A stretch of 64,000 nt of DNA from a virus, in the IMG/VR virus record IMGVR_UViG_3300042888_002665. One strand, written 5' to 3'. The notes beneath the pieces were generated by a model. That model saw only the letters and a list, made by a program, of their open reading frames with translations, had not been told where the DNA came from and did no database searches. Of the stretch, positions 15,275 to 55,889 are shown in pieces. Both the position numbers and the translations under genes were made by a program. Position 1 is the first letter of the stretch, and each line of letters opens with the position of its first letter.

Positions 15275-15300
15275 AGAAAAGGGGCCGAAGCCCCCTTTCT
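15275..15300 (-). terminator. hairpin AGAAAGGGGGC-TTCG-GCCCCTTTTCT fused to the promoter motif
   Basis: 11-bp stem directly after the DUF932 stop; 3' arm runs into TTTATTATTTTTA. Confidence 0.75.
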
Positions 15301-15301
15301 A

Positions 15302-16105
15302 TTAAGCTACTTCAGCGTATTCGCTTACATACTGATCGGCTAACTCCCATAATTCGGAATTGAATTCGATGTTCTGTGTGAAGTTCTTCAACGCTCTTGC
15401 TTTGCGTGTTTTGCCTTTTTCGTTTTGGTAATTAAATCCACCACCAACTAGCTTCTCCTGAACGCGGTTCAAAATTGCCCACATTGACATACCAGCATCT
15501 TCTTTACGTTCAACTAACAGTAATTGATCTGTATTAATTTCTTTCAAATTATCTCCAAAACGTAATTGAGCTGCTTTAGCTGCAAACGCATTAGCCATTT
15601 CATCTGAAATAGTTACATTGTTGAATTTATTAATACGGCCTACTACATCAGGTAATTTTTCAACCATTGTATGAATTAATGAACGTAATGCTTCAAAATC
15701 ATAACCTTGATGACGGATCTTTAATGTGCCCATATCTTGGTCTTTAATTACTAAACCATTCGAACACACTAAACGGAATATACCTACCTCGAATCGGAAT
15801 GTAGACGAGCCGTCGTGTGAATTGGTTAATAAAATTTCAATATATGAATCAACATTACCATCTGCATCAGCCATATACACACCCTCATTACGGAATTTAA
15901 CTAAGTGCTTTTTAATTGCTGAATTACCACCTTTACGGGCCTTAACACCAAGTGCTTGAATTGGTTCCCATCCTAATTTTCTCATGTCTTCAACTACCTG
16001 AATGGTAGGAATCTGAGTGTAGTGATCTGATAAACCGGCCTTGTGCTCGGTTGACATTACTGCGGGTGCGATCGCTTGGATCTGCTCGTTTGATAAAATG
16101 TTCAT
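15302..16105 (-). CDS. DUF932/DUF945 (YubP-like) family protein
   Basis: YTQIPT...KHLVKFR...LLTNSHDGSSTFRFEVGIFRLVCSNGLV. Confidence 0.85.
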   Translation of the reverse strand: MNILSNEQIQAIAPAVMSTEHKAGLSDHYTQIPTIQVVEDMRKLGWEPIQALGVKARKGGNSAIKKHLVKFRNEGVYMADADGNVDSYIEILLTNSHDGSSTFRFEVGIFRLVCSNGLVIKDQDMGTLKIRHQGYDFEALRSLIHTMVEKLPDVVGRINKFNNVTISDEMANAFAAKAAQLRFGDNLKEINTDQLLLVERKEDAGMSMWAILNRVQEKLVGGGFNYQNEKGKTRKARALKNFTQNIEFNSELWELADQYVSEYAEVA

Positions 16106-16161
16106 ATTTTGTTTATTTATTTGTTTTACAAATTAAAGATAATAAGGAAATTCTCACTTTC

Positions 16162-16374
16162 CTAGAATTTATAAGTAGTTTCTTCAATATCTTCACTTGA
16201 TCCTTGTCTAACAGGACGAGTCGAAATCGGGGAAATTGAATAGCCTATAGTTTCAAGCATTGCGTTCAAGTTAGCTACTTTAGGGTATGCCATTTTTTCT
16301 AATTCAGAGCCGATACCTTTAAGTAAAAGCATCTCTTTGTAATCGCGTGTTGTTTTTTTGTTTGTACTCTCCAT
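16162..16374 (-). CDS. hypothetical protein
   Basis: ORF track; promoter near 16412. Confidence 0.55.
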   Translation of the reverse strand: MESTNKKTTRDYKEMLLLKGIGSELEKMAYPKVANLNAMLETIGYSISPISTRPVRQGSSEDIEETTYKF

Positions 16375-16431
16375 TTTGTTTGTTTTTTAAATTGAAAATT
16401 TATTTTATAAGGTAAATATAATAAGGAAATC

Positions 16432-17052
16432 TTATATTGATCTGTATGCTTGACTAATTCGTTTAGCGACTAGTTCTTTATAATCATCAGCAGCAGCGAT
16501 AAATTCACCACGTGACGCATTCCATAATACTAATTCAGCTTTACGTCTGCGTACTAATCCTTTACGAACACGTCCACCTGCTAATTTATATTGAGATAGA
16601 TACGGTTCAATGTTACGTCCACGCTTAATTGCTCTACCTAATCCATCAGTGGTAAAACGCATTCCGATGTTGTAGGCAATCATTGATGTTAATATAATCT
16701 TTTTACGTGATTTTAATTCTGGGAAACGACGTTTAACGTCTTTAATGAATTTAGCATAATCCTTATCAAATAATTCATCTGCTTGCTTAACTGAAATGCC
16801 ATTACGGTATAAACGGCGTTCCTTTCTGGTCATGACGTGACCCCACCCAATGGTCCATTTACCGCCTGGGCATTTATACGGTTTTAATTTTAATGATTCT
16901 TCTGATTTGATAAATAAAGCAGCGGTGTTGTAGAGTTTGTCGTCTGATGTGTCTACTGCTTCGATAATTGGGGGTTCGACTTTGGGTTTGTGTTTGTCGT
17001 TATAACCTACCCACAATGCGGCTAGCATAGCCGTTATGACTATTTTCTTCAT
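16432..17052 (-). CDS. GH24 phage lysozyme with N-terminal signal/anchor
   Basis: SEESLKLKPYKCPGGKWTIGWGH (E-x8-C-x5-T triad), YNIG, GLVRRRKAE; hydrophobic N-terminus. Confidence 0.85.
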   Translation of the reverse strand: MKKIVITAMLAALWVGYNDKHKPKVEPPIIEAVDTSDDKLYNTAALFIKSEESLKLKPYKCPGGKWTIGWGHVMTRKERRLYRNGISVKQADELFDKDYAKFIKDVKRRFPELKSRKKIILTSMIAYNIGMRFTTDGLGRAIKRGRNIEPYLSQYKLAGGRVRKGLVRRRKAELVLWNASRGEFIAAADDYKELVAKRISQAYRSI

Positions 17053-17114
17053 AAGTAATGTTGGTTAAATTGTTAAACTTATAATCTAAAGTTAATTAAG
17101 AGAACCTTAGTTTC

Positions 17115-17183
17115 CTAAGGTTCATCTTCAAATTCGGGATATCCGTATCCACTTTCAATCCATTCTTCTAATTCTAACTTCAT
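17115..17183 (-). CDS. 22-aa acidic peptide with dedicated promoter
   Basis: MKLELEEWIESGYGYPEFEDEP; promoter motif 17206-17222 upstream, hairpin 17102-17123 over the stop. Confidence 0.4.
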   Translation of the reverse strand: MKLELEEWIESGYGYPEFEDEP

Positions 17184-17232
17184 GGTCTTATCTTTTAGTA
17201 CGTAGTAAAGATAATAAAGAAACTTTAAATTA

Positions 17233-18435
17233 CTAATTTCCTTTTGTAGGGAATTTAGTCCAACCATTAGTCCAAGTTGGTTTTGCTAAAGTTTCAATTT
17301 CAGTTGCAGTTAAAGTTATTTCAGTATTACCTTCACTTAATGCTTTCGTTTTAACCAAATCAGATGTTATAATAGTAGTTGCTTTACTAATGAAGTTTAA
17401 TCCATTAAATGAACCTATTTTATTATTCTGAAATTTACTTATACCATCTTTGTAGAATTGTGCTGTCTCATTACTTTCCATACTAAATCCACCTTTCATA
17501 TATCCAATGATTGTAGAGTTATATACTTCAAATTGAGTTGCTCTTCTCCAACGCATTGCTAAATTATGATTAGTTAAAGCAGTAGCATCATTTGGTCCAA
17601 TTAAAATGATACCATCTAAAATAGGATGTGTGAATGGTTCTGCTGTTGAACCTGTTCCATCATTATCACATTCTACACCATTACCCGCATCACCATTATC
17701 TACAAATTGTGGATCTCTTTTAGAAACTGAATTAGATACCTTACCTCTATATCCAAAATCAAAATCGTAATCATCATCAGCAGTTCCGTATGCATATAAG
17801 TTTTTAGCATTTACAGTTCCACCAAAGAATTCAAATGCATCATCATTTGCATAGATTGTCTGTACATTTTCAATTGTTGTTCCACTACCAACACCACCTA
17901 ATGTTAATGCATTGATTTCAGAGTTTGGCATTGCTGCAATACCAGCATATTCAATACGAACATATTTTAGAATACCACTATTATCTAAATCATTTGTTCC
18001 ACCGAACGCTCTACCAATACCACCTTCGATGGTTGGTTCTGAAGTGCGATTTGTTTTAGCTCTACCTAAAATAACAATTCCACCCCAATCACCTGGTGTT
18101 CTTTCACCTGCTGGTCTGCCTGATGTAAATATAATTGGTTTAGCTGCAGTTCCTTCTGCTACAATTTGTGCTCCTCTTTCAATACATAATGCGCCCTTCT
18201 CACTTATATCCGATTTGATAATTGTGCCAGGTTGAATGATAAGTTTAGCACCATCGGTTACATAAACATATCCTTTTAATATCCATTCTTTATCCGATGT
18301 AAGAGTTGTAGTTGTGGTAATATTACCAGTTAAAGTTGTTGATGTTGGTACATTGATTGGTGTAACTTCTCCACCTAAATCCTTTGAACATGCAAACATT
18401 GTTAAACTTGCGAACAATACTAATAATTTTTTCAT
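17233..18435 (-). CDS. Bacteroidota surface lipoprotein, beta-helix type, partner of TonB-dependent receptor
   Basis: Lipobox MFAC; WGGIVILG, DNSGILKYVRIEYAG, NDDAFEFFGG, DDDYDFDFGY motifs; TGA/ATG overlap with the receptor gene. Confidence 0.75.
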   Translation of the reverse strand: MKKLLVLFASLTMFACSKDLGGEVTPINVPTSTTLTGNITTTTTLTSDKEWILKGYVYVTDGAKLIIQPGTIIKSDISEKGALCIERGAQIVAEGTAAKPIIFTSGRPAGERTPGDWGGIVILGRAKTNRTSEPTIEGGIGRAFGGTNDLDNSGILKYVRIEYAGIAAMPNSEINALTLGGVGSGTTIENVQTIYANDDAFEFFGGTVNAKNLYAYGTADDDYDFDFGYRGKVSNSVSKRDPQFVDNGDAGNGVECDNDGTGSTAEPFTHPILDGIILIGPNDATALTNHNLAMRWRRATQFEVYNSTIIGYMKGGFSMESNETAQFYKDGISKFQNNKIGSFNGLNFISKATTIITSDLVKTKALSEGNTEITLTATEIETLAKPTWTNGWTKFPTKGN

Positions 18436-20921
18436 AGGTTGTAATTTAGTGTTATTGAAACTGTTGTTTCGTTATTGGTTTTTATTAAAGTACGATTTGG
18501 TTTTTGGTAATATTCAAATGGTTGTCTGAATATATCCGATACTGCTAATTTAATTTCTCCGTTTTTAATTTTACGAAGAATAACAATATCAACTACATCA
18601 CGAGAGTTCTCAAATATATCAGGATATCCTTGAAATCCTACTGCTGATATTCTATCTCCAACTCTATTATATGATATGTTGAATGTATTGTTATTTTTAT
18701 GTAAGTTCAATCCACCATTTAGTACATAGTTTGATTGTCCTTGCAATTGTCTTTTAACTCCGTTTATATCAACTTCCGAATTGATGAATGATGTGTTTGA
18801 ATATAAATCTAACCAATCATTTAATTTTTTACGAAGTTCAATCTCAACTCCATATACCAATGCCTCATTTGGATTTTTATATGTTAGTAAAAGGTTTGAT
18901 GGAACTGAACCATCTGCTACAACTTGCTCAATTGGATTGAAGAACTTTTTACCAAAGAAACCGATTGATATGTTCTCACCTGATTTAGGATACAACTCAA
19001 ACTTTATATCTGAATTGAATATATCCGTTTTTTGTAAGTTTGGATTTCCTAATAGTTGTGCGTTTCTAACAAAATCATAATATGCAAAATTAGCTACCTC
19101 TCTAAACTCTGGTCTTGCTAATGTTTTACTTACGGATAATCTAACCTTTGTTTTTTCCGATGTAGAATAGGTTGCGTTTAATGATGGTAGTAAATCCAAA
19201 TACTCTCTATCTACTGAAATCCGTTGTCCACCAAAATCAGATGTTTGAACTTTGAATAAATTATATTCCGTTCTAAATCCGGTATTCAATTTTAGTTTAT
19301 CAATTTCCTTTTCATACATTATATATGCATTTGCTAAATCAAAATCGGCAGTATATCTATCCGTATTGTTTGTAATTTCATTTAATAAATCAGTTGATTC
19401 ATATCTGAATATTCTTGCTTTGAAGTTTCTCAATTTCTTCAAATACCCCACTCCTAAACGAATATCTCCTATGGATTTGTTTAATCCCCCATTGAATGAG
19501 TTTTCATCCATTACACTCCAAAAACGATAGGTGTCTCTCCATGCTATTGAGTAAGGAGTTGATGTGTATAAAGATGATATGTAAGGTGTTACTCTATAAT
19601 CAGGTTGGTCTCTTAACATAAGATTATATCCTATATTAAAATCCCATGTTTTAATCTTACCTTCAAATTGTGTATTGAATACTAACTTTTGAATTGAGTT
19701 AGATGATTTACTATCTACATACTGAACATTATCATAGTTTTCACCAACTCTACTTAAAAATGATTTTTCGTTTTGGTAGTTAGCAAGTGTTTTCCAACTA
19801 TAACGATTCTCACCTAAATAAACTATATTTAATAATCCATTTAATGATTGTATATTTGAATAGTTCTGGTCTTTATATTTGTATGCTAATTCTGTTGATG
19901 ATTGATAATCTATTCTTTCGGTTGTGTTAGCTGAAAATGTGTTTCTTGCAGTTGAACTGAATAAGATGTTCCATTTGTTTTTCGCAACACCAAATGATAA
20001 GTTACCATTTAAGTTTGGAATAGATGTTGATGTTTCGGTTTGAGGTGAACCTATTAGTTTAGTGTATGCTCTTCTATCACCTATACCTGCTATTCGGTAT
20101 CCATTTGTTGATGGAAATGATGTTGGGAATTGTATTGGGTCTACCAACCTAAAATCCTGTCCTGTTGATAATGAACCCCAACTTCCTCCCAATGATATAT
20201 TAAAGAAATCACCACTAACTTCTTTTGTTGTTATTTGGACTAATCCACCTGCAAAGTCGCCTGGTAGATTTGCCGATGCTCCTTTATTAATGATGATATT
20301 ATCTATAAGTGATGCTGGGATAATATCAAATGAGAATGCTCTTCTATCGGGTTCGGTTGATGGTAGGATTGATTTGTTTAGTAGAGCCGAGTTGTATCTA
20401 TCAGCTAAACCTCTAACTAAAACAAACTTATCATTTTGGATTGTTACACCACTAACTCTTTTAAGTGCATCTCCAACAGTTCTATCTGGTGTTTTCTTTA
20501 TTGATTCGATTGATAAACCATCTGCTACAATGTAAGATGTTTTAAGTGTGTTGATAAGTGCAGTTGCAGTTTCTTTCTTTACTACTTGCCTTACCATAAC
20601 TTCTTGTAATATCTTTATATCTTCTTTTAACTGAATGTTAAAGTTAGTTGTAGTATCAATTGTAATATCTTTGATATATTCTTTGTATCCAACAAATGAT
20701 GCTTTAATTGAATAGTTACCAATAGGTACATTACTAAAGATATATCTTGAGTCTATATCAGAAGTTGTACCTATTTTTTTATTTGTGTCTTTATTTGTTA
20801 ACCAAACTGTTACACCTATTAAATCTTCTTTTTGGGTTTTTGTGCTGCCGGTTAAATTTACTTGAGCAACTAAAGGGAAAACTAAAAAATAACTAATTAA
20901 AAAACTAAGTAATAACTTCAT
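18432..20921 (-). CDS. TonB-dependent outer-membrane receptor
   Basis: Signal peptide, carboxypeptidase-regulatory-like N domain, plug VRGLADRY...FDIIP...GDFAGG, barrel motifs GNPNLQKTDIFNSDIKFELYP, C-terminal beta-strand. Confidence 0.92.
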   Translation of the reverse strand: MKLLLSFLISYFLVFPLVAQVNLTGSTKTQKEDLIGVTVWLTNKDTNKKIGTTSDIDSRYIFSNVPIGNYSIKASFVGYKEYIKDITIDTTTNFNIQLKEDIKILQEVMVRQVVKKETATALINTLKTSYIVADGLSIESIKKTPDRTVGDALKRVSGVTIQNDKFVLVRGLADRYNSALLNKSILPSTEPDRRAFSFDIIPASLIDNIIINKGASANLPGDFAGGLVQITTKEVSGDFFNISLGGSWGSLSTGQDFRLVDPIQFPTSFPSTNGYRIAGIGDRRAYTKLIGSPQTETSTSIPNLNGNLSFGVAKNKWNILFSSTARNTFSANTTERIDYQSSTELAYKYKDQNYSNIQSLNGLLNIVYLGENRYSWKTLANYQNEKSFLSRVGENYDNVQYVDSKSSNSIQKLVFNTQFEGKIKTWDFNIGYNLMLRDQPDYRVTPYISSLYTSTPYSIAWRDTYRFWSVMDENSFNGGLNKSIGDIRLGVGYLKKLRNFKARIFRYESTDLLNEITNNTDRYTADFDLANAYIMYEKEIDKLKLNTGFRTEYNLFKVQTSDFGGQRISVDREYLDLLPSLNATYSTSEKTKVRLSVSKTLARPEFREVANFAYYDFVRNAQLLGNPNLQKTDIFNSDIKFELYPKSGENISIGFFGKKFFNPIEQVVADGSVPSNLLLTYKNPNEALVYGVEIELRKKLNDWLDLYSNTSFINSEVDINGVKRQLQGQSNYVLNGGLNLHKNNNTFNISYNRVGDRISAVGFQGYPDIFENSRDVVDIVILRKIKNGEIKLAVSDIFRQPFEYYQKPNRTLIKTNNETTVSITLNYNL

Positions 20922-20960
20922 CTATATTGGGTTTTAAATCCATGTATAGATATAAAAGAA

Positions 20961-21000
20961 AATATTACTAAACAACGTCTAATATTACTATTGTATTACT
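20961..21000 (-). promoter_or_regulatory. direct-repeat operator (AGTAATA x3) upstream of the TBDT promoter
   Basis: TATTACT at 20963, 20983, 20994 on + (spacings 20 and 11 nt), next to promoter variant TTTTCTTTTATATCTAT. Confidence 0.45.
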
Positions 21001-21532
21001 CTACGAGTTTATAAATTTCGTCTAAACAGCGTCCTTGCTCATCGTAGTCTAATCCAAAACCAATAATAAACTCATCATCGGTTAATTCCATTCCTACGTA
21101 ATCAACAACCACATTAGTCTTGTAATTCTTGGGGCGTGTAAATAAAGAACATATTTTAACGCTATTAACTTGCTTCTCATTAATTAGATAGTCTTTTAAT
21201 TCAACCATTGTCAAGCCTGTCTCAACAATATCCTCGACTATAATTATATTACGTTTATAGAGATCGCGGGATATTCCAAGAACTTGTTTTACAGTGCCTG
21301 TAGATTCGATACCTTCATATGATGACAATCTAACGAATTCTAATTCTGGACTTAATGGATATAATTGTTCAGCTAGATGCGCTCCGAATATACCTGCTCC
21401 CTTTAATACTATAACTAATACTGGATTGTAGTTTTGATCATGTATTATTTCCATTGCTAATGCCTTAACCATAGCATTTAGCTTTTGTTTTGGTATTAGT
21501 GGTTCGAAATGTTTATCTTTTATCTTTAGCAT
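20996..21532 (-). CDS. hpt: hypoxanthine phosphoribosyltransferase
   Basis: VLKGA, PRPP-binding IIIVEDIVETGLT, FIIGFGLDY. Confidence 0.92.
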   Translation of the reverse strand: MLKIKDKHFEPLIPKQKLNAMVKALAMEIIHDQNYNPVLVIVLKGAGIFGAHLAEQLYPLSPELEFVRLSSYEGIESTGTVKQVLGISRDLYKRNIIIVEDIVETGLTMVELKDYLINEKQVNSVKICSLFTRPKNYKTNVVVDYVGMELTDDEFIIGFGLDYDEQGRCLDEIYKLVE

Positions 21533-21675
21533 GTTCTCGTTTCAAATCCTCAGCTATTTGCTTAATAATTTCGTCTGGTGTCAGTACTAATAGAGTATTT
21601 AATTTGTATTGTCCTCTATATTTGTCGTATGAAGTAAGTACTTCACGAATTAGGCTCTCCGTTATCGGAGTTTGA
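21490..21675 (+). other. ORF-track call on + strand; probably not a gene
   Basis: Opposes the universal minus-strand orientation; the real gene here is more likely an untracked minus-strand small ORF. Confidence 0.15.
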
Positions 21676-21858
21676 ATATCGTTCTGCATAACCTATTGTA
21701 TGATGTGTTGTTGTTATTTTATGTCCCATATTGTATGGGTTGTAGTTTATTTCTAATGTCAATGTAGATAAATCATCATCTTCACATTGTATGTATAAAT
21801 CATCTAATGCTTTTATAAGCATACGACGTTGAGCCCGTTTAACTTCTTTATAGGTCAT
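21643..21858 (-). CDS. hypothetical protein
   Basis: ORF track. Confidence 0.55.
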   Translation of the reverse strand: MTYKEVKRAQRRMLIKALDDLYIQCEDDDLSTLTLEINYNPYNMGHKITTTHHTIGYAERYSNSDNGEPNS

Positions 21859-21860
21859 AA

Positions 21861-22121
21861 TTAATCTACAAAGTCGCTTACATTTTCATCAGCGAATAGA
21901 TCTTCTGGAAATTCCTCGTAATCATCGTCATCATCTAGTAAATCTTCATCTGCCCAAATTACTTCCCATTTATCACCATCCAATTCATTTAATGGATCAA
22001 TGATTTCTTCTAATCCATAGTATTCTAGATCCTCCTCATATGTTTCGTTATAAGCGATGTTATCGATGTCAACATCAAGTGGAGTTTTTGGATCGCGTGG
22101 TTTATAAGTCTGTGATTGCAT
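21861..22121 (-). CDS. extremely acidic small protein
   Basis: About 32 D/E vs 4 K/R in 86 aa (hand count). Confidence 0.55.
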   Translation of the reverse strand: MQSQTYKPRDPKTPLDVDIDNIAYNETYEEDLEYYGLEEIIDPLNELDGDKWEVIWADEDLLDDDDDYEEFPEDLFADENVSDFVD

Positions 22122-22485
22122 CTACAATTGATTTTTTAAGTTTTTTACGAGTAAATTTAATTGTTGGTACTAATTCCTTTAATTTAATAACCTTAGCACA
22201 ATACTCATATTCTTCTGCTTCTTCTAATGTTGGTAGACAGCCATCTAAATTCTCTAAATAATCAGTATCGTCCATTGCTAATGATGTAGCCATATTCATA
22301 CCTCCTATTGTTGGTGACAATATGATACAAGCAATAACATATTTTACCTTGTATCTACAAGCAAATTCGACCGCTTTAACAGTTTGTTTAGCAATTTCCA
22401 ACCTGTATTCAGGTCCGGGTGTGCCAAACTTACCTCCTTTAATTATAAGGGGTTCAAACGGATCGAATTCGTCTTGTTCTTTCAT
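22102..22485 (-). CDS. hypothetical protein with UVR-like C-terminal motif
   Basis: LEEAEEYEYCAKVIKLKE. Confidence 0.6.
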   Translation of the reverse strand: MKEQDEFDPFEPLIIKGGKFGTPGPEYRLEIAKQTVKAVEFACRYKVKYVIACIILSPTIGGMNMATSLAMDDTDYLENLDGCLPTLEEAEEYEYCAKVIKLKELVPTIKFTRKKLKKSIVDAITDL

Positions 22486-25379: not shown

Positions 25380-26144
25380 TTAGACAAATATTTTGTTAGT
25401 CTGAGGATCTCGTTTCATATAGTCACCCCATTTATATTTAAATGTTTCATGACACATTTGTTCTTTATATAAAGACTCTTTAATACGTTCTTCAGATTTA
25501 GTACCTACTGAAACGAAATGGTAAAATGAGACATTATATAAACGAATACTTCCTATGTTGTTTAAATTACATTTCATAAAGAATTCACAATCAACAACCC
25601 ACCCACCAGGATATGATTCATCCCATCCACCTACTTTTAAATAATCTTTTTTAGACATGAATATAGGTAAAGTAGATCCGTTTATATCTTTAACCATTTT
25701 GGAGGATTTAACTTCAAATACTCTAAACGCTTCTAAATCAAATGTTTTAGGGTCACGTCCTAAATCCTTAATTATAAATTGACTAAATATGCTTGGGGTC
25801 GGTTCAATTTGATTCGGGGCATAAACAGCACCTGGTTGATATTGTGATTCTAAACGTGTGTCCCAATCAGCCGGAAATACATTATCATCATTTACAATTA
25901 ATATTAAATCATTAGACGCATTATAAACACCTAAATTAGTTGCTCGAGCTAATCCTACATTCTCTTTTAAATTAAGTACTGAAATATAATCTTGGTATTT
26001 ATCTAATACTTCTTTATTTTCATCATAGAATCCATCTACAACAACGATAATTTCATTTTTGTTTGTTTGACCTTCAATGCAGGATTTTAAACACAAATCA
26101 AGTACTTCTGGTTCTCTGTAAGTAGGAATTATAACTGATATCAT
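25380..26144 (-). CDS. glycosyltransferase family 2
   Basis: MISVIIPTY start (26144, ATGA overlap with upstream gene), VVVDG, NDD motif, VGGWDE, D-x-E. Confidence 0.88.
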   Translation of the reverse strand: MISVIIPTYREPEVLDLCLKSCIEGQTNKNEIIVVVDGFYDENKEVLDKYQDYISVLNLKENVGLARATNLGVYNASNDLILIVNDDNVFPADWDTRLESQYQPGAVYAPNQIEPTPSIFSQFIIKDLGRDPKTFDLEAFRVFEVKSSKMVKDINGSTLPIFMSKKDYLKVGGWDESYPGGWVVDCEFFMKCNLNNIGSIRLYNVSFYHFVSVGTKSEERIKESLYKEQMCHETFKYKWGDYMKRDPQTNKIFV

Positions 26145-26833
26145 ATTTTTTTCCAATTGATTAAAGGTGTTAGCCAAGCTGTCTCACCGTGAGTGGAATA
26201 GCCTGGTATTGGAGTAACTAAGTAATGAGCTGAATTGTATAATGAGACAAACATGTCGAAATCACGGGGATAACTGCCTTGAGTATATTCACGCAATACA
26301 TTTTCCGTCTTACGTAATGTCTTCACTTTAGACGCGAATGTCATCGTTGTTGAATTAGTAACTTTCCAATGTGTAGATGTAGATAACATGACACGAGTCA
26401 TTTCACCTCCACCTTGTACGTATGGATTAGCACCATCAATGTATTTATCTGGATGATCGTATAATGAAACGAAATCGGCTCCAATTTCATTTAGTCCTTC
26501 CTCAATTATTGTCTTAGAGTTAGGTAAATGTAGATAGTCGTTTTCAATAAAGTATACTATTTCATTATCATCAAATGTTAGTGCTTTATCTAATGCTAAA
26601 TTAAATGTACCAGCACCATGTCCAACTGAAACATATTCGATGCTTTCTCTAGGTATATAACTTTGAATTATTACATCTGTTTCTTCAGATACATTATCGG
26701 CTATTACAGTCCAATCTTCAAAAGCAACGTCTTGGAATATATTAACTGCATTCCATAAGCAATTTCTATTATTGATGTACTTCGGTTTTACTTTATTGTA
26801 ACCGGCATCTGATATTCTATATATTATTTTCAT
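26141..26833 (-). CDS. GT-A fold glycosyltransferase-like protein
   Basis: YFIENDYLH (DxD-like), FVSLYDHPD; island context. Confidence 0.65.
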   Translation of the reverse strand: MKIIYRISDAGYNKVKPKYINNRNCLWNAVNIFQDVAFEDWTVIADNVSEETDVIIQSYIPRESIEYVSVGHGAGTFNLALDKALTFDDNEIVYFIENDYLHLPNSKTIIEEGLNEIGADFVSLYDHPDKYIDGANPYVQGGGEMTRVMLSTSTHWKVTNSTTMTFASKVKTLRKTENVLREYTQGSYPRDFDMFVSLYNSAHYLVTPIPGYSTHGETAWLTPLINWKKI

Positions 26834-27902
26834 TATTTAGTAATTTAACTTGATGTAATGCTGAAGCAATAACTTGATGCATGTCATAATATTTGTAATC
26901 TGCTAATCGACCACCGAATATAATTTTATCTTCTTTATCCATTAATGATTTATATTGATTATATCTATCATTATTTACTTCATCATTTACTGGGTAATAC
27001 GGCTCACCTTCAGTAGCTGGGTATTCACGAGTAATAACAGTATGTTTTTGTTTACCAAATTCAAAATGTTTATGTTCAACAATTCTAGTATAGGGCACAC
27101 TAGCTTCAGTATAATTTATAGCAGCATTACCTTGATAATCATTAATATCTAAATATTCACTTTCAAAACGTAATGAACGATATTCTAATTTACCAAACTC
27201 ATAATCATAAAACTTATCAACGGGTCCCGTATAAATAACTTTATTGTGTTCTGGTAGTGTATCTTTAAAATAATCAACACCTAGCTTAACTTTGATACCA
27301 TCCAATAACTTATCAAATATTTGAGTATAACCACCTATTGGGATACCTTGGTATCTGTCATTAAAGTAATTATCATCATATGTTAATCTAATAGGTAATC
27401 GTTTAATAATTGAAGTAGGTAATTGTTTTGGATCACGTCCCCACTGTTTAGTAGTATATCCTTTAATAAATTTTTCATATAATTTAGGTCCAACTTGAGA
27501 TAATATCCATTCCTCTAAATTATCTGGTTTATTATTAGGTATTCTTTCTAATTCTAATATTGACTCAGCTTGTGTAGGTGTTGTTACCCCATATATTTGA
27601 TATAATGTCATTAAGTTAATTGGGAAAGAATAAATATTGCTACCATATTTGACTTTAGGTCTGTAGGTAAAATGATTAAATTCAGCGTATTGATTTATGT
27701 AATCCCACACTTGCTTATTATTAGTGTGAAATATATGAGGACCATAAACATGAACATTAATTCCATCTACATCAGCAGTAAAACAATTACCCCCAATGTG
27801 ATCTCGTTTATCTATTACTAATACCTTTCTACCAGCATTAGTTAATTCTCTAGCACATATAGAGCCAAATAAACCAGCTCCAACAATTAAATAATCATAC
27901 AT
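26817..27902 (-). CDS. glf: UDP-galactopyranose mutase
   Basis: YDYLIVGAGLFG, HIGGNC, HVYGPHIFHT, YTKQWG-like, YFNDRYQGIP, YRSLRFE, YTRIVEHKHF, GRLADYKYYDMHQ. Confidence 0.96.
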   Translation of the reverse strand: MYDYLIVGAGLFGSICARELTNAGRKVLVIDKRDHIGGNCFTADVDGINVHVYGPHIFHTNNKQVWDYINQYAEFNHFTYRPKVKYGSNIYSFPINLMTLYQIYGVTTPTQAESILELERIPNNKPDNLEEWILSQVGPKLYEKFIKGYTTKQWGRDPKQLPTSIIKRLPIRLTYDDNYFNDRYQGIPIGGYTQIFDKLLDGIKVKLGVDYFKDTLPEHNKVIYTGPVDKFYDYEFGKLEYRSLRFESEYLDINDYQGNAAINYTEASVPYTRIVEHKHFEFGKQKHTVITREYPATEGEPYYPVNDEVNNDRYNQYKSLMDKEDKIIFGGRLADYKYYDMHQVIASALHQVKLLNNENNI

Positions 27903-28578
27903 TGATTTCTAAATCTATTACAACATTATTTTTATTACCACTATTCCAGAACAAACTAATTAAATGGTTTCTTCTTTCAAATATATTTTTCCAACTTTTA
28001 TATAACTTAATAAAGTCTTTTTTCTTTTTAATTGTTACAATGGTCATCCCCCATGATTTTGGATAATTACATACTCTAATAAATTCATCTTCATAATTTA
28101 AATAGGAAATATCAAAAAAATCCTTTATACCTTCTTCTACACGAGGCCAAGATTCATTATTAAAAGTATCACACTTACCTTCAGGCCAATTACTATCATG
28201 AAATGCAATAAATCCACCTTCAACAACATGAGGGTACCAATGATATAATTCAGACATAACTTGTTCTTTGATATGAAATGTATCAACAAATAATCCTTGA
28301 ATTGGTGTTTCCCAATATTTTCCAACTGTAGATGAATCACCTAATATTTTAGTATATCGAGGGTTGTTCCCAACTGATGGTTCTAAATACTTCCAATCTA
28401 CATCTACACCAAATACTTTATTAGTTTCATCTGTCATTAATAAGACTGCTGAAGATACTCCTGTACGAACACCTAAATCAACAAATGTTGAATTTGTATA
28501 ATTAGATGCTACTTCTAATAAAGGAACTGCATTAGTACCTATATCAGTGTTAAAAAATTGAGCTATTGCTGGGTTCAT
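27895..28578 (-). CDS. class I SAM-dependent methyltransferase (Methyltransf_24-like)
   Basis: VDLGVRTGVS, LFVDTFH, GGFIAFHD. Confidence 0.8.
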   Translation of the reverse strand: MNPAIAQFFNTDIGTNAVPLLEVASNYTNSTFVDLGVRTGVSSAVLLMTDETNKVFGVDVDWKYLEPSVGNNPRYTKILGDSSTVGKYWETPIQGLFVDTFHIKEQVMSELYHWYPHVVEGGFIAFHDSNWPEGKCDTFNNESWPRVEEGIKDFFDISYLNYEDEFIRVCNYPKSWGMTIVTIKKKKDFIKLYKSWKNIFERRNHLISLFWNSGNKNNVVIDLEINV

Positions 28579-28579
28579 C

Positions 28580-29560
28580 TTAATAATATGTGTTTTGGAT
28601 TTGATTCATAAATACTTCTACTTCATTTCCAATCATTTTACGATATAAGTTAAAATTATTAAAATGCCAATCAAAATTTGTAAATATATCTTCAATTAAT
28701 TCTTTAACTCCATCAGTACTATCAAACTTATATTTTGAATCTATTGTCACATCTTGAAAGAATCGAGCACTGCCATTAAATGATGTTATTAAAGCACAAC
28801 CACAAGTTGCTGCTTCGCGTGGGAATTTATCTTTGCCTGGATGATTGCCAAAATCAATATATAATTTACTTTTAAGCATTAGTTCACGTAATTGATCCCT
28901 ATTCATATCAATCAATGGAATAAATTTAATATCCGGGTTTTCATCCATTAATTGTTTAGTTATTTCAATACCTTTTTTAGGATTATACAACACAACATTA
29001 TCTCTATTTTCATGAGTTATATCTGTAATGTAATCTCTATTAATATAATCAAATAATGGATAAACATATTGAGCGCCATTATTAAGTAAGAACCAATATG
29101 CGTATTGTGATTGATAGAAATGATGTACGTTTAGGTATTCGGGTTGTGTTAGTTTTAAGTGAAAGTCTTTCTGATCACTACCTAATCCATTATCTACTGA
29201 TAACCACCATATTGATTTCTGTATATTAGTAAATTGATCTAATACATCTGGCCATATTTCAGGGATAATAATTAAATTTTCAGGTGAATCAATAATCTCA
29301 CTTGTAATATCGTCTTTAGTAATATATTTGTTATATGCTAGTGGGATATTGATTTTTGATTTATGATAATCTGATTGTACTATCTCATACCAATTACTAT
29401 TATGTTGGGGATGTACTGCTGGGTGGATTAATACCATTTTAGTATTAAATCCTAATTCTTTATAAGCTGCGGCCAAACTATAAGAGCATTCAATCCCTCC
29501 AGTTTCAATATCAGACGGCCCAAAAATATAAACTATAGAATCTTTAGTTAATTTAATCAT
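28580..29560 (-). CDS. GT-B fold glycosyltransferase-like protein
   Basis: GGIE, IPEIWP, WWLSVDN, YNPKKG, YIDFGNHPGKDKFPREAA. Confidence 0.7.
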   Translation of the reverse strand: MIKLTKDSIVYIFGPSDIETGGIECSYSLAAAYKELGFNTKMVLIHPAVHPQHNSNWYEIVQSDYHKSKINIPLAYNKYITKDDITSEIIDSPENLIIIPEIWPDVLDQFTNIQKSIWWLSVDNGLGSDQKDFHLKLTQPEYLNVHHFYQSQYAYWFLLNNGAQYVYPLFDYINRDYITDITHENRDNVVLYNPKKGIEITKQLMDENPDIKFIPLIDMNRDQLRELMLKSKLYIDFGNHPGKDKFPREAATCGCALITSFNGSARFFQDVTIDSKYKFDSTDGVKELIEDIFTNFDWHFNNFNLYRKMIGNEVEVFMNQIQNTYY

Positions 29561-29562
29561 AT

Positions 29563-30360
29563 TTAAATGTACATTATATTAAATTGTGGAAAGTGAAGAT
29601 GACATATATTCTCCATCATTAAATTTTTGTGACTTGGATCGTGAAGTGTTAATTTTTGGATTGTTTCCAATAATTTAATGTATGTTGATTCTTGAAGTAA
29701 GTGCTCTTTTTTTAAATTATTACGTTCAACGCATTTTTTTAAAAATGTTTCACAACTCCATCCTTCAATATATTCCCATATTCTTCCATTATATTCGGAA
29801 AGAGATTGAACATGATTGTATGTTTCATCTATATAATGAGCATCATTTAAATAATCAGTTTTAGATACATTAATAATGTAAAAATTTGTTTGTGGCATGA
29901 AATCTTCTTTTATAATTCGATCAAAATCAAAATCATAATTTACCATACCTCCATATCCGATTCCATTTAAATAATAAAAATCAGCTTCACTAATTTCCTT
30001 ATCTAATAATTCTGAATGAATAACCATATCATTAGCTGATTTGAATAACCATTCAATGTTGTTTTCTTTACAATAATTAAATATAGCATTATCTAAATCA
30101 GCAGTTCCAAAATTATGTCCCCTATTATTAGTTGAATTTAGTAAAATGCAATTTGGAAAATGATGTCTGCACATTTTAGAATAATCTTCTACAAACTCAT
30201 CACTATCAAAGTTAGTTGCTATTATAACATGTGCTGCTTGATTAATTACATCCCTACTATAAGCAAAAAACTTATCTGAATTGATTAAGTCATCATATTT
30301 GCCTATATAACCTATAGTACCGTATGCTGCTTTACTAAAAAGTTGATTTAAATTCATCAA
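29563..30360 (-). CDS. putative glycosyltransferase (GT-A-like)
   Basis: Island context; NRGHNFG, KSAND; weak motifs only. Confidence 0.45.
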   Translation of the reverse strand: MMNLNQLFSKAAYGTIGYIGKYDDLINSDKFFAYSRDVINQAAHVIIATNFDSDEFVEDYSKMCRHHFPNCILLNSTNNRGHNFGTADLDNAIFNYCKENNIEWLFKSANDMVIHSELLDKEISEADFYYLNGIGYGGMVNYDFDFDRIIKEDFMPQTNFYIINVSKTDYLNDAHYIDETYNHVQSLSEYNGRIWEYIEGWSCETFLKKCVERNNLKKEHLLQESTYIKLLETIQKLTLHDPSHKNLMMENICHLHFPQFNIMYI

Positions 30361-30997
30361 ATGTAATTAGATTTAATAGTTCTTTTCGATTATCATTAAA
30401 ATACTCCCAATCGGTAATTTGTGGATTTATATCTTCTACAAATTGGTTCTGGAAGTAATGTACATATTGAATAACTCCTACTCCAAAATCTGTATCAACA
30501 ACACATGATTTAATATTTGGATAATGAGCTTTAAAATCAACAAATGATTTCCAAACATCTCCATTCCATGCGATTGTTTCTCGTGGAATTAATTGAGCTT
30601 CATAACTTGTTGGGTTGCAATCATGCATTAATATAAATCCCCCATCTACTACATGTTTTAATGCATTTTTGATGTCTTTTTCTACTTGATCAGCATGATG
30701 CAAACCATCGATGAATATAATATCGTATTTAATATCATGTCCATCAATTAATTTAAAAAATTCATCTGATGTTACTGGGTAATTTGTTTCTGGTGCTTTA
30801 AATCCTTCAGCTGCTGGATCGACTCCATCTTTATGAGTTGCTTTAACTTCTCTGATATTTTCTCCTTTAAATACTCCAATTTCTAAATAATTAACTAAAC
30901 TGTATTGTTCAATTAAATAATTAATTATATCATGACGTTTAACTTCACTATTTAAATATCTAATTACTTCTGGATGGTCTAAATTATTTGTGTACAT
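30335..30997 (-). CDS. class I SAM-dependent methyltransferase (Methyltransf_24-like)
   Basis: YLEIGV, DGVDP, SDEFF, YDIIFIDGLH, GGFILMHD. Confidence 0.85.
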   Translation of the reverse strand: MYTNNLDHPEVIRYLNSEVKRHDIINYLIEQYSLVNYLEIGVFKGENIREVKATHKDGVDPAAEGFKAPETNYPVTSDEFFKLIDGHDIKYDIIFIDGLHHADQVEKDIKNALKHVVDGGFILMHDCNPTSYEAQLIPRETIAWNGDVWKSFVDFKAHYPNIKSCVVDTDFGVGVIQYVHYFQNQFVEDINPQITDWEYFNDNRKELLNLITFDEFKSTF

Positions 30998-31629
30998 TAT
31001 AATGTGTCGTAATATGCGTTTTGTTTTTCTTGACGTTTAATATCTTTATGATGCCATAAAAATAATTCAGCAGGAATATATGAAAGAGTTTTATGTCCTT
31101 CAAGTACTTCATGTACTTTATTTTTCCACTTAATAGATCCATCATTTTTGAATATACGATGTTGCCAATCTGGGAAGTTGATTAATTCCTTATTATCAAT
31201 TTTTTGAACTTTCCATCCCCATTTATCGATATGCTCTTGAGTTAGCCCATCAACTGTATTACGTCGCGCAATATAAAATGATTCAGCTAATCCACGATTA
31301 GATTCAAATATAGCTGGTAAATATGCCCAAAATTCTTTAGATGGTAACTCATCAGCATCAATTTGAACAATGTAATCGCCCGTACAATATTCTAGGAATT
31401 GGTTCTTCCAATCAGCAAAATGACCATTAAAATCTAATTTACGCCACGTTTGTACATTTGGTAATTTATTGAATGAAAGTAAGTACTCCAATACTTCAGG
31501 AGTACCATTTTTTTCATCATACAAGATAACGATTTCATCTTGTACTTGTTTATTTTCTAATAAATTGGGGAGAAGTTGTTTTATCTCCTCCAATTCATTA
31601 CATACTGTTACTGCAAAACTAAACTTCAT
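30997..31629 (-). CDS. glycosyltransferase family 2
   Basis: FAVTVCNE, QIDADE (DxD), FPDWQHRIF, VHE. Confidence 0.85.
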   Translation of the reverse strand: MKFSFAVTVCNELEEIKQLLPNLLENKQVQDEIVILYDEKNGTPEVLEYLLSFNKLPNVQTWRKLDFNGHFADWKNQFLEYCTGDYIVQIDADELPSKEFWAYLPAIFESNRGLAESFYIARRNTVDGLTQEHIDKWGWKVQKIDNKELINFPDWQHRIFKNDGSIKWKNKVHEVLEGHKTLSYIPAELFLWHHKDIKRQEKQNAYYDTL

Positions 31630-32065
31630 CGTCGTTTTTAATTAATGTTGAATAAGCATATAAAGCGGCTGGAAACATTATATTAGGATATACAACTGAA
31701 TTTTCCATATCTAATTTATGAGTTTGTCCTACTAATGCTTTATCATTTTCTCCAATCAAAACATATTTAGCTACTCTCCACCCCCAATTATCAGCATTCT
31801 TTCCATCTGGAAATAACATAGCTTGATTTTGTTCGTTTAATACTGTTGGATACCATACAAATCCATCATCATCAATTAATTTTAAATCTTTAAACAATTC
31901 AGGTTGGGATTCATAAATTGACTTTTCCAAATCAGTCCTATCGACCATACCTTCATTAGTTTGGTATCCACAACTTTGACAAATACGAGTATTAACTCCC
32001 TGCATTTTAAGTGCTACTACTGATTTATCAGTTCCACAAATAGGGCAATCAAACATTTCTTCCAT
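31619..32065 (-). CDS. zinc-ribbon protein
   Basis: CPIC...CQSC. Confidence 0.65.
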   Translation of the reverse strand: MEEMFDCPICGTDKSVVALKMQGVNTRICQSCGYQTNEGMVDRTDLEKSIYESQPELFKDLKLIDDDGFVWYPTVLNEQNQAMLFPDGKNADNWGWRVAKYVLIGENDKALVGQTHKLDMENSVVYPNIMFPAALYAYSTLIKNDDEV

Positions 32066-46160: not shown

Positions 46161-46994
46161 TTATTTATCTAAAATAATAAATCCATTATCATATTTTGTA
46201 GGGATTTTAATCCAATTTTCACACCAAATATCTTGAGGATCTTCCTTTACCCCAGGACCAAACCATGTACTAGGAGATACAACTACTTTATTTGTATTTC
46301 TTGACATCCAAGCACCCCACCAAGAATATGTTGAATTTGAAATTATGAAATGATCACATAAACTTAATAACCAAATACCTTCTTCATTCCAAAATTTTGA
46401 ATTATCATTAAACACCATATTAGGTAAATTAATGTTTTCTTTACACCATTCTATATCATCACTCATTATTAATAACACATCATGTTGAGGTAAATATTTG
46501 TAAGCTTCATTAATATATTCTAATGATATAGAAGGATGATTAAATGATTGATCTGAATGTAAATAATCTCCTCTTCTTACATTTATTGCTGCTACTGTTG
46601 AATTTTGGAAAAATGGATATTCATTATAAACTTTATCAATAAATTCTAAAGGGTATGAGAATAAAGATTTAATAGCTTCGGTGTGTTTTTTAAAATATTT
46701 TTCACTCTGATAATATCCTGAAAATATAGTTGGGTGATTATCATTTGGGGGTAATTTTTCAAAATAAAATTTTCCTTGAATTGATTCATTTCCATATGTT
46801 GATACAGATGAATCAAATTCTAATTTTCTAAATAAGGTATTTTTTAAATTTGGTAATGGAAATTCATTTTCAGGTAAAAGGAATTGTCTGTTATACTCTA
46901 AAGATTTGGCATAAGCATGAGCGATTTGAAACATTAAATTCCCAGTTCTTCCAATTAATCTACAAGTTATATAATTATAAGTCTTTGTTATCAT
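46161..46994 (-). CDS. alpha-1,2-fucosyltransferase (GT11)
   Basis: GRTGNLMFQ, GYYQSEKYF, NVRRGDY, SDD, ISNSTYSWWGAW. Confidence 0.9.
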   Translation of the reverse strand: MITKTYNYITCRLIGRTGNLMFQIAHAYAKSLEYNRQFLLPENEFPLPNLKNTLFRKLEFDSSVSTYGNESIQGKFYFEKLPPNDNHPTIFSGYYQSEKYFKKHTEAIKSLFSYPLEFIDKVYNEYPFFQNSTVAAINVRRGDYLHSDQSFNHPSISLEYINEAYKYLPQHDVLLIMSDDIEWCKENINLPNMVFNDNSKFWNEEGIWLLSLCDHFIISNSTYSWWGAWMSRNTNKVVVSPSTWFGPGVKEDPQDIWCENWIKIPTKYDNGFIILDK

Positions 46995-46996
46995 AT

Positions 46997-47647: not shown

Positions 47648-47654
47648 TTTATTA

Positions 47655-53567: not shown

Positions 53568-55085
53568 TTACAAATTTAACTTAGACCCTATAGTAAAGAA
53601 GAATGTTGGTTTATCAAATGTAGATGGTATATTTGATTTTATATTAAAGTTAATTCGGAAACGTTTAGATAACGGAATATCGAATGAATTTCCTAACATA
53701 ACATTAAAATCTTTATTTACTTTCATTATCGGATCACTTGTAATATAAGATGTCGGAGAATAAAGTAGAAACACTTCAGGTGTAAATTTAATTTTAGTTT
53801 TTGTTTCTAATGGTCGCATATAGAATCCAGTTAGAGATGGGCCATACATTTGATCGCCTGATCCTAAGAATCCAGCAATTAATGATACGTTATAACCTGT
53901 AACACCTTTTTTACCTAATAATTTAATATAAGTATAACCTCCAAATGTTAAATGGTCTGTAAATGTAGTTGCGTATGTTAATGAATAATTTCGAACATGA
54001 CTGATAGCACCATTTGTAGTATACATTTTAGTATACTTACCTGTTAATGCTAATTGTTTGAAATTTAAATGAATCATTGAAGTAGCACCCCACGATTCAT
54101 TTCCCATCAATGATGCTTTTGAAGCTGATACACCCAATACTGGGGTAAATGTATTGTCTGCATTTTGCATTAATGCAAAGTCACCTTGTACTACTAATGG
54201 ATTAGTTGTGTTTACTGTTTTAGCTTTCTTTTCGTCTTTCTTACTGTCTGATTTCTTCTCTTCTTTTTTGCTTTCACTTTTAGCATCGTCTTTCTTTTCT
54301 TCCTTACTTTCGGATTTGGATTCGGATTTGCTTTCTTCTTTAGATTCCGACTTTGATTCGCTTTTAGATTCAGACTTGGCTTCAGCTTTAGCCTCTGCTT
54401 TAGCTTCAGCCTTTGCTTCGGCTTTAGCTCCTCCCGGAGATCCACCGCCTCCTCCACCACCACCTCCACCTCCACCACCTGTAGCGCCTCCACCACTTGG
54501 AGCGGAACTACCCGCTGATGATGCGCTTGAACTCGCTGTAGATGATGCACTTGATGACGCACTACTTGATGCCGTAGATGAAGCTGTACTTGATGCTGTA
54601 CTAGCGGCTGCACCTGCAGCAGTATTAGATGCTGTATTTGAAGCTGTACTAGCAGCAGTAGAAGCTGCGGTTGAAGCAGCAGTTGATGCTGCAGTACTTG
54701 CTGCTGTTGATGCTGCAGTTTGAGCTGCTGTTTGAGCAGCAGTCTGGGCGGCTGTCTGTGCTGCAACTTGTGCTGCTGCTTGAGCTACTACTGCTGAAAT
54801 TGTATTTGAAATTGTTTGAGTTTGGGTTTGGGCAACTACTTCTTGTGCTTTACACACATATGCTTTCATTTGCTCATTTACCCATAATTGTACCTCTCCT
54901 TTAGCTGCTTCTTCATATGAAAATGAACGAGCAGAACTACGATATACAATCAATACAGAACCCCCGATCGGAACAGTGTATAATACCATTTGTTTCGAAC
55001 AGGGGTCAAAGTATGCGTTGGTAAGTACTTGTGCCTTACTTAAAAATGAAACAGTTAAGAGTAAGAATACAAGTACATACTTCAC
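53568..55085 (-). CDS. secreted/outer-membrane protein with long low-complexity linker
   Basis: Signal peptide; AQTA/ASTA, poly-Gly, AKAE and SESK repeats; C-terminal alternating beta-strands. Confidence 0.75.
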   Translation of the reverse strand: MKYVLVFLLLTVSFLSKAQVLTNAYFDPCSKQMVLYTVPIGGSVLIVYRSSARSFSYEEAAKGEVQLWVNEQMKAYVCKAQEVVAQTQTQTISNTISAVVAQAAAQVAAQTAAQTAAQTAAQTAASTAASTAASTAASTAASTAASTASNTASNTAAGAAASTASSTASSTASSSASSSASSTASSSASSAGSSAPSGGGATGGGGGGGGGGGGGSPGGAKAEAKAEAKAEAKAEAKSESKSESKSESKEESKSESKSESKEEKKDDAKSESKKEEKKSDSKKDEKKAKTVNTTNPLVVQGDFALMQNADNTFTPVLGVSASKASLMGNESWGATSMIHLNFKQLALTGKYTKMYTTNGAISHVRNYSLTYATTFTDHLTFGGYTYIKLLGKKGVTGYNVSLIAGFLGSGDQMYGPSLTGFYMRPLETKTKIKFTPEVFLLYSPTSYITSDPIMKVNKDFNVMLGNSFDIPLSKRFRINFNIKSNIPSTFDKPTFFFTIGSKLNL

Positions 55086-55088
55086 TTA

Positions 55089-55889
55089 TTACGCTCCTAT
55101 TGCTTTACTAAATCCGTTAGGACAAGTTCTAGTACATACTAAAGATGCAACAACTGGTGCTACTGCAGCTCCGATTGCAATGCCAACTCCTGCTGGAGTA
55201 GCCCACAATGCAGCCGAATCTAAACTATAGTAAATACAATTTGAACATACATTTTTCAATAATTGTGGATCAACATTTCCACCAACACCAGGTATTGCTA
55301 AAAATCCGTCTGCTACTATTGAACCCATTGCTGTTGCTGCTACTGATTTAGCTGCCATATCTGCTGTATAAAGAACAGGTGTAGCCATTAATGATAATGT
55401 AGTTGAAGTTGCTGCTCCAGCTGGTTGAGCTGGTGTGAATGCTGCAACACATCCCATAGAGATTGCTGCGGTTATTCCAATCGTACAAGCATTTGCATCT
55501 GCCCAATTATATGCAGCTACTGCACCTGCTGCCACTATTTCAACACCCGCAACAATTTGTTGTTCAGCTTGTTTAGATAATTGAACAAATTCGTTTTGAG
55601 TTACATCGAATCCTACCTTTGCAAATTCTTCGGTAGTACTTGCAATAGTACACGCTGCACTTTCTACTCTGTGTGCACTATCGGTAGCAAATGCTACTGA
55701 ATAGTTGTATGCATCTTCTACACTACCTATTGCAGTGTTTATACCACTTCCAATTGGTTGAATTACATTATCATTAATTGCATTTCCTGCATCTACAAAT
55801 GCATTACCAATTGGCTGAATAACATTATCATTAATTGCATTTCCCGCATCTACGAATGCGTTTTCAATTGCTTTTCCGGCTCCGCCCAT
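55089..55889 (-). CDS. Ala/Gly-rich protein with 18-aa tandem repeat and hydrophobic C-terminus
   Basis: NAFVDAGNAINDNVIQPIG x2. Confidence 0.7.
   Translation of the reverse strand: MGGAGKAIENAFVDAGNAINDNVIQPIGNAFVDAGNAINDNVIQPIGSGINTAIGSVEDAYNYSVAFATDSAHRVESAACTIASTTEEFAKVGFDVTQNEFVQLSKQAEQQIVAGVEIVAAGAVAAYNWADANACTIGITAAISMGCVAAFTPAQPAGAATSTTLSLMATPVLYTADMAAKSVAATAMGSIVADGFLAIPGVGGNVDPQLLKNVCSNCIYYSLDSAALWATPAGVGIAIGAAVAPVVASLVCTRTCPNGFSKAIGA

Follow-up and report, generated by a model that had tools for sequence, protein, structure and literature searches.

A mobile transporter and beta-helix lipoprotein cassette of freshwater phages as a probable phosphate-starvation uptake module

We analysed a stretch of 64,000 nucleotides (hereafter the window) from the IMG/VR virus record IMGVR_UViG_3300042888_002665, which carries adjoining genes for a TonB-dependent transporter (TBDT) and a surface-type lipoprotein. 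With a probability of roughly 0.6, the pair is an outer-membrane uptake module of the phosphate-starvation family, consisting of a TBDT and a beta-helix lid, and is carried as a mobile cassette that would aid phosphorus import by starved infected cells. The evidence comes from the neighbourhood and published regulation of bacterial relatives, from a repeat upstream of phage and bacterial copies, and from the conservation of both genes among phages.

Results

An overlapping gene pair

The window is AT-rich (GC 32%) and holds nearly all of its open reading frames (ORFs) on the minus strand. The two genes (Table 1) overlap by 4 nt, the start codon of the lipoprotein gene sharing the sequence ATGA with the stop codon of the TBDT gene. 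The TBDT begins with a signal peptide, MKLLLSFLISYFLVFPLVA, with cleavage before Q. Its Pfam matches are CarbopepD_reg_2 (PF13715, residues 27-110, 49.7 bits, above cut-off), Plug (PF07715, residues 136-226, 34.3 bits against a cut-off of 23.9) and OMP_b-brl_3 (PF14905, residues 476-827, 87.5 bits, above cut-off). A TonB-box-like segment, LQEVMVR, was recognized by eye at about residues 103-109 in a conserved LxEVxV block, where V108 is nearly invariant. The AlphaFold2 (AF2) model, made with 44 sequences, has a predicted local distance difference test score (pLDDT) of 78, reaching 80-90 in the barrel, with a poor plug at 30-57. The barrel is of the 22-strand type with short loops, and a CarbopepD_reg-like beta-sandwich stands at the N-terminus. 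At E about 1e-20, Foldseek matched the model to FepA, PhuR, Cir, FecA and BtuB, with which it has 12-14% identity (E 4.5e-20 for FepA, 1fep); these matches fix the TBDT fold and say nothing on the substrate. The top NCBIfam model was TIGR01782, whose 187 bits fall under its cut-off of 310. No SusC-family model matched in the NCBIfam and Pfam searches, and PHROGs gave no match for either protein.

The lipoprotein carries the lipobox LTMFA/C, followed by SKDLGG. A protein atlas assigns it to PF28492 (Beta_helix_4); our Pfam and NCBIfam copies, the former of which was without PF28492, gave no match, and a PDB sequence search with the lipoprotein profile returned nothing meaningful. The AF2 model (pLDDT 88, predicted template modelling score 0.88) is a right-handed parallel beta-helix. 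VIA-align superposed it on 2pyg_A over 281 residues (Z 23.6, root-mean-square deviation 3.7), and mannuronan epimerases, PL6 lyases, tailspikes, NosD and polygalacturonases all scored at Z 21-24; the Foldseek rows were weak (best E 3.6e-3), the fold being evident by VIA-align. Across 43 phage and bacterial lipoproteins, an invariant cluster combines one His and three Arg with acidic residues (D198, D199, E202, D220-222, D224, D226, D249, E255, D257, H290, R295, R297 and R298), and would be in keeping with a metal-dependent site that binds an anionic ligand. The original prediction, made from the DNA letters, had described an intact 829-aa TBDT with signal, plug and barrel adjoining a 400-aa lipoprotein of beta-helix type. 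Both descriptions hold: ORF, Pfam matches and the AF2 barrel agree on the transporter, as do ORF coordinates, the ATGA overlap and the modelled right-handed beta-helix on the lipoprotein.

Phosphate context of the bacterial relatives

The nearest cellular relatives of the pair are found in freshwater Aquirufa (Cytophagales), at about 80% and 71% identity (lipoproteins 75-80%). The next nearest cellular lipoproteins, 50-62% identical, belong to Chitinophagaceae and Sphingobacteriales. In A. avitistagni and A. esocilacus, the TBDT and lipoprotein genes are followed on the same strand by a gene of the alkaline phosphatase (AP) superfamily, one or two PHO4 phosphate transporter genes and a gene for a Porin_O_P phosphate porin, and a GT28-type glycosyltransferase gene lies near the Aquirufa pair. 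Among 70 loci of other Bacteroidota, 22 likewise include a PHO4 gene.

The literature points in the same direction. In Flavobacterium johnsoniae, Fjoh_0545/0546 are induced by depletion of inorganic phosphate (Pi) only, not by N or Fe limitation; their cluster, PUSIV in the phoBR region, also has OprP (pf07396) and a pf04101 glycosyltransferase, and Fjoh_0546 is the lipoprotein 'FII', which has a pectin-lyase fold and is abundant in the exoproteome (PMC8115612). Fjoh_0545 has the same three Pfam families as the window TBDT (PF07715, PF13715 and PF14905), Fjoh_0546 is like the window lipoprotein in its pectin-lyase-type fold and its place directly downstream of the TBDT gene, and the cluster as a whole resembles the Aquirufa locus in its phosphate porin and pf04101 glycosyltransferase (PMC8115612). 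Two further pairs are known. The pairing of BT4055 with BT4056 of Bacteroides thetaiotaomicron is conserved in 621 genera, and a position at the transporter's outer face is predicted for the lipoprotein (bioRxiv 10.1101/2023.03.17.533168). ElpS of Caulobacter is a surface lipoprotein of phosphate starvation encoded beside a TBDT (PMC2996285), and is 31-36% identical to FI-FIII (PMC8115612). The original prediction had linked such pairs to phosphate starvation and had proposed to look at the gene neighbourhood of the closest bacterial homologues. Indeed, the Aquirufa pair lies in a phosphate-acquisition locus, and this location and the Pi-depletion-induced Fjoh_0545/0546 (PMC8115612) together bear the link out.

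A shared upstream repeat

TTAACA-type hexamers with an 11-bp period were spotted by eye upstream of the phage and Aquirufa copies. The motif was then scored as TAAYM-N6-TAAYM between -130 and -31 from the TBDT start, where the background is 0.007-0.015 per 100 nt. It is present in 39 of 61 phage copies, in six of nine from Aquirufa and in 29 of 31 from other Bacteroidota, the last being a set that was not inspected when the pattern was defined. In addition, the motif precedes each Aquirufa PHO4 gene and the glycosyltransferase operon, the PHO4 genes being preceded by tandem TAACA hexamers of 11-bp period, up to four in a row (Table 1); it was not found before the Aquirufa PBP_like_2 (PstS-like) genes. 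OmpR/PhoB-family regulators usually act at direct repeats of this period. We infer that the TAAYA repeats, a candidate Pho box, are the likely binding site of host PhoB. Our literature search found no paper defining the 11-bp TAAYA repeat as the Pho box of Bacteroidota. In the window, the repeat GTAATAcaataGTAATA lies at -77, the same position as the motif in other phages, and a third GTAATA follows at 20963-20968, 20 nt beyond it. Closer to the start codon stands CTTTTATATCTATA, which was judged visually against ten further promoter boxes in the window.

Residence in phage genomes

Relatives were taken from IMG/VR, from which 80 viral loci were fetched, 75 of them with upstream DNA. Relatives of the lipoprotein, at 71-97% identity, occur in at least 134 viral contigs. 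The TBDT gene stands directly upstream in all 75 loci having upstream DNA, and the ATGA overlap is kept in 58 of 61 phage loci. The phage TBDTs are 61-97% identical to that of the window, i.e., they differ by up to about 39%. Complete records with both the pair and a T4-type Gp23 capsid gene measure 171,171 bp (with terminal repeats), 221 kb and 326 kb, and the window itself has genes for a DNA polymerase of phage type, GroEL, a clamp loader, a phage lysozyme and numerous glycosyltransferases. The Aquirufa neighbour genes are absent from all 80 viral loci, as are PHO4 transporter and phosphatase genes around the pair. Among related phage records, PhoH was found in four of five, no TonB_C domain in the five searched, and no Terminase_6C match in four, the last of which is not to be taken as absence. 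A DNA search of the GenBank phage collection gave a single weak match, LR745206.

The cassette has a GC content of 31.7% against 32-33% in its flanks, and its GC at third codon positions, 0.14-0.20, is below the 0.31-0.36 of A. avitistagni and A. esocilacus and the 0.28 of a third Aquirufa; its base composition has fully converged on that of the phage. Exact contigs from other lake-water samples bridge the lysozyme-lipoprotein junction (15300-17674) and the junction between the TBDT gene and the upstream phosphoribosyltransferase (PRTase) gene (20434-22449), and one run from 2016 bridges both. Host contamination or misassembly, which had been named as what would overturn the original prediction, is ruled out by the phage-like GC, the bridged junctions, the recurrence in viral contigs and the viral neighbours; the pair also occurs in complete phage genomes. 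The T4-like freshwater phages that carry the cassette probably infect Aquirufa.

Phylogeny and transfer

In the tree, a single clade (SH-aLRT 99) unites 48 phage sequences and joins Aquirufa with a support of 100, other Bacteroidota being excluded. Of 61 genomes from Aquirufa's own family, 58 encode a homologue, at only 37-54% identity, and these homologues form a separate clade. When they are included, Aquirufa (support 97) and the phages (support 98) become reciprocal sisters on a long shared stem, which is placed among sequences of Chitinophagia and Sphingobacteriia. On these trees, one transfer between a cell of the Aquirufa lineage and the phages is well supported. The separate clade of same-family bacteria may reflect paralogy, and the trees favour neither direction of transfer. 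In a tentative and rather unlikely scenario, with which the reciprocal sister groups, the long stem away from Aquirufa's own family and the greater diversity of the phage clade are compatible, the short-loop module arose in phages, passed to an ancestor of Aquirufa and is now the host's own phosphate-starvation importer.

The short loops are common to both groups: phage and Aquirufa TBDTs have 825-833 aa versus 905-944 aa in other Bacteroidota, and the roughly 100 absent residues fall in extracellular loops. The phage TBDTs come in two variants, one of about 825-829 aa and one of about 750 aa that is without the N-terminal beta-sandwich domain; in the shorter proteins (L018, L020, L024, L030, L061, L068 and others), the signal peptide leads directly into the plug linker.

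Mobility and selection

The local gene order at the cassette is common to the window and a single related locus (L001). In six related loci (L004, L008, L013, L022, L027 and L065), the cassette lies between homologues of the window genes 55089-55889 and 53568-55085, which abut in the window. As the pair occupies a different site in related phages, and as that site is empty in the window, it moves as a cassette. In L004, nucleotide identity to the window is 91.8% from the stop codon of the lipoprotein gene to about codon 26 of the TBDT gene, where homology ends; thus, the signal-peptide end and the upstream region of the window copy differ. A PHROGs search of the L004 cassette flanks was uninformative. 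Pairwise ratios of nonsynonymous to synonymous substitution (dN/dS) among phage copies lie at 0.05-0.20 in the lipoprotein gene and at 0.06-0.25 in the TBDT gene, which indicates that both genes are held under purifying selection in many phages.

Table 1. Positions of the gene pair, its surroundings and the features compared with it
Feature	Position	Strand	Remarks
TBDT gene, 829 aa, intact	18432..20921	(-)	ORF and domain search
Surface-type lipoprotein gene, 400 aa, intact	17233..18435	(-)	ORF, lipobox, structure model
GTAATAcaataGTAATA, direct repeat of 11-bp period	20983..20999	(-)	77 nt upstream of TBDT ATG; overlaps PRTase stop codon
CTTTTATATCTATA, variant of the promoter box recurring in the phage (CTTAATTATCTTTA type)	20945..20958	(-)	24-37 nt upstream of TBDT ATG
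PRTase gene, upstream neighbour	20996..21532	(-)	Phage backbone; conserved only in L001
Phage lysozyme gene, downstream neighbour	16432..17052	(-)	Phage backbone
Hairpin, then phage promoter box of lysozyme gene	17102..17123	(-)	9-bp stem
Empty cassette site	55085..55089	(-)	266-aa gene (55089-55889) abuts 505-aa gene (53568-55085)
TAACA hexamers upstream of Aquirufa PHO4, L084	12451		
TAACA hexamers upstream of Aquirufa PHO4, L088	12397, 15759-15781		
TAACA hexamers upstream of Aquirufa PHO4, L086	15786-15808		
TAACA hexamers upstream of Aquirufa PHO4, L089	14483-14494		
Lipoprotein then TBDT of LR745206.1, region 74566-86760 (L162)	6480-5605 and 5426-2910	minus	

Surroundings of the cassette

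The hairpin and the promoter box of the lysozyme gene mark the downstream end of the pair's transcription unit. Just past the lipoprotein stop and after a phage promoter box lies a mini-ORF of 22 codons, MKLELEEWIESGYGYPEFEDEP (17115-17183, minus strand), which terminates within the hairpin.

Several other features were seen along the way. The 505-aa ORF at the empty site (minus strand) starts with GTG and lies in a GC-rich patch (40% versus 32%); it has no Pfam match and a weak PHROG match to virion RNA polymerase, and its homologue flanks the cassette in relatives. In addition to the cassette TBDT, the record containing L004 (G006) has another ORF with a Plug domain, about 1096 aa long, at C1:42986-43243, and may therefore carry a second, SusC-sized transporter. 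Two runs of glycosyltransferase genes lie on the minus strand of the window (25380-34804 and 46161-52504), with a UDP-galactopyranose mutase at 26817-27902, a set of sugar-modification genes that is unusually large for a phage. Two cell-wall enzymes are also encoded on this strand, one combining PG_binding_1 with a chitinase-class-I-like lysin (56222-57064), the other being the phage lysozyme next to the cassette.

Discussion

Comparison with known systems

The pair resembles several known systems and differs from each. Fjoh_0545/0546 are chromosomal, with phoBR in the same cluster, whereas in the phage the two genes stand alone as a cassette and the loops are shorter. BT4055/BT4056 likewise combine a non-SusC TBDT with an adjacent lipoprotein of the pectin-lyase superfamily as putative non-SusD 'lid' (bioRxiv 10.1101/2023.03.17.533168); they differ in belonging to a gut bacterium, with no phosphate data or phage carriage reported, and the few contacts of high confidence derive solely from modelling. 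ElpS of Caulobacter crescentus, a surface-anchored lipoprotein that is produced in phosphate starvation and is associated with alkaline phosphatase activity, resembles the window lipoprotein in being encoded beside a TBDT (CCNA_00170), but it is a distant, alphaproteobacterial relative that is released by a protease dependent on the type II secretion system (PMC2996285). SusC/SusD also couple a TBDT to a surface lipoprotein lid encoded side by side; SusD, however, has a tetratricopeptide-repeat-like helical fold as opposed to the beta-helix, and the loops of the window barrel are short. A SusC/SusD reading of the window pair was rejected, given that no SusC model matches and that the partner is without a SusD domain and folds as a beta-helix.

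Among phages, the textbook phosphate helper genes are pstS and phoA of marine cyanophages, and Zeng and Chisholm reportedly found in 2012 that these are under control of the host PhoBR. By analogy, the cassette would likewise represent, in a lytic phage, one part of the host's phosphate kit, preceded by a candidate Pho-box-like site, with the host supplying the remaining pathway. The difference lies in the parts and the organisms: the cyanophage genes code for a phosphatase and for a periplasmic binding protein, both cyanobacterial, and the cassette for an outer-membrane TBDT and its lid, in phages of heterotrophic Bacteroidota. Another precedent is offered by the megaphages Mar_Mega_1 and LR745206, for which Michniewski et al. 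described a presumed TonB-dependent receptor ('SusC') and carbohydrate uptake, with no mention of a partner lipoprotein or of phosphate (PMC9723777). In the 634-kb LR745206, we found a homologue of the beta-helix lipoprotein (39% identity) directly upstream of the TBDT (27% identity). The reversed gene order and these identities indicate that a pair of this kind was acquired separately. Our literature search found no paper on a phosphate-type TBDT-lipoprotein module in phages, PMC9723777 being the only phage-TBDT paper found.

Proposed mechanism

In our model, host RNA polymerase in a phosphate-starved infected cell would transcribe the pair from a promoter behind the TAAYA repeats, the likely PhoB site, and the two genes would be translated as a coupled pair. 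For export, both proteins would depend on the Sec, lipoprotein-export and BAM machineries of the host. The surface-exposed beta-helix lipoprotein may then act as a lid or substrate catcher on the TBDT, which would be energized by host TonB-ExbBD, and the module would increase the flow of a putative phosphorus compound into the periplasm. Host Pho enzymes and PHO4-type transporters would complete the import and feed the synthesis of the phage's own genome of 177 kb. The most economical reading of the sequences is that the phage enlarges uptake capacity at the outer membrane and would leave energy supply, periplasmic hydrolysis and inner-membrane transport to the host.

Alternative explanations

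TonB-dependent transporters are classic phage receptors, and it could be asked whether the phage TBDT and its lid replace or mask Pho-induced surface proteins of the host, by way of superinfection exclusion or receptor replacement, such that the infected cell and its debris take up fewer competing phages or fewer of the phage's own progeny by adsorption. The trimmed loops of the phage and Aquirufa TBDTs, which are without about 100 extracellular residues, are suggestive in this respect, as is the loss of the N-terminal domain in the copies of about 750 aa. Purifying selection, however, acts jointly on the plug, the TonB-box-like segment, the barrel and the lid, which a decoy or mask would not need. 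Furthermore, the host's own copy of the transporter stays in spite of the added one, and a motif common to the PHO4 promoters indicates a nutrient logic. On balance, we regard such a remodelling of the surface as unlikely.

An uptake function being accepted, the nutrient might still be another one, i.e., a carbohydrate, iron or a cofactor, with the phosphate neighbourhood reflecting merely regulatory co-location. The megaphage TBDT was read as a SusC for carbohydrate uptake (PMC9723777), the lipoprotein has the fold of polyuronate-acting enzymes and of NosD, and TIGR01782, the top NCBIfam match though below its cut-off, covers mostly sugar transporters. These indications are to be set against a partner that is no SusD, the failure of any SusC-family model to match, and an orthologous context of AP-superfamily enzyme, PHO4 and phosphate porin; moreover, Fjoh_0545/0546 answer Pi depletion and neither N nor Fe limitation (PMC8115612). 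Import of a different nutrient likewise seems unlikely. A local gene order that recurs in L001 alone might suggest that the pair is a passenger that does little or nothing in the phage, whether a recent host fragment, contamination or a chimeric assembly. We consider this highly implausible, as the pair occurs in at least 134 viral contigs and in complete phage genomes, the TBDTs diverge by up to about 39% while dN/dS remains at 0.05-0.25, the composition is phage-like and exact contigs bridge the junctions.

Having favoured a phosphate-starvation uptake module, we would note that a number of observations weigh against it. Some concern its regulation. The motif is missing from 22 of the 61 phage copies, the window repeat is a single, degenerate (GTAATA) match to TAAYA-N6-TAAYA, and the 5' end of the cassette in the window is not homologous to that of most relatives. 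Given the degenerate repeat and the phage-type box nearby, transcription of the window copy may follow the phage programme rather than PhoB, and phosphate control is less assured here than across the family. No RNA runs are listed that contain the stretch; a library labelled RNA-Seq (X20) has only pieces 90-93% alike and may contain DNA, and was not used as evidence of expression. Others concern function. The cassette brings no periplasmic or inner-membrane partner, and the likeness to Fjoh_0546, BT4056 and ElpS is one of families, fold and context. Outer-membrane proteins being commonly phage receptors, a role at the surface, between phages or between phage and host, is possible.

Implications

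A phosphate-starvation uptake module in these phages would extend the idea of phage phosphate helpers to heterotrophic freshwater Bacteroidota and to energized outer-membrane transport. That the phages kept only the transporter and its lid suggests that these two are limiting, and sufficient alongside the host's other Pho proteins. The phage pair may thereby serve as a natural experiment for the uncharacterised ElpS/FII/BT4056 family, and in the shared 11-bp TAAYA repeat the Bacteroidota Pho box has a concrete candidate. If the tentative phage-to-Aquirufa transfer were true, phages would be a source of host nutrient transporters and not merely borrowers. Since the cassette is abundant in lake metagenomes, it may affect the movement of phosphorus through lake food webs during infection.

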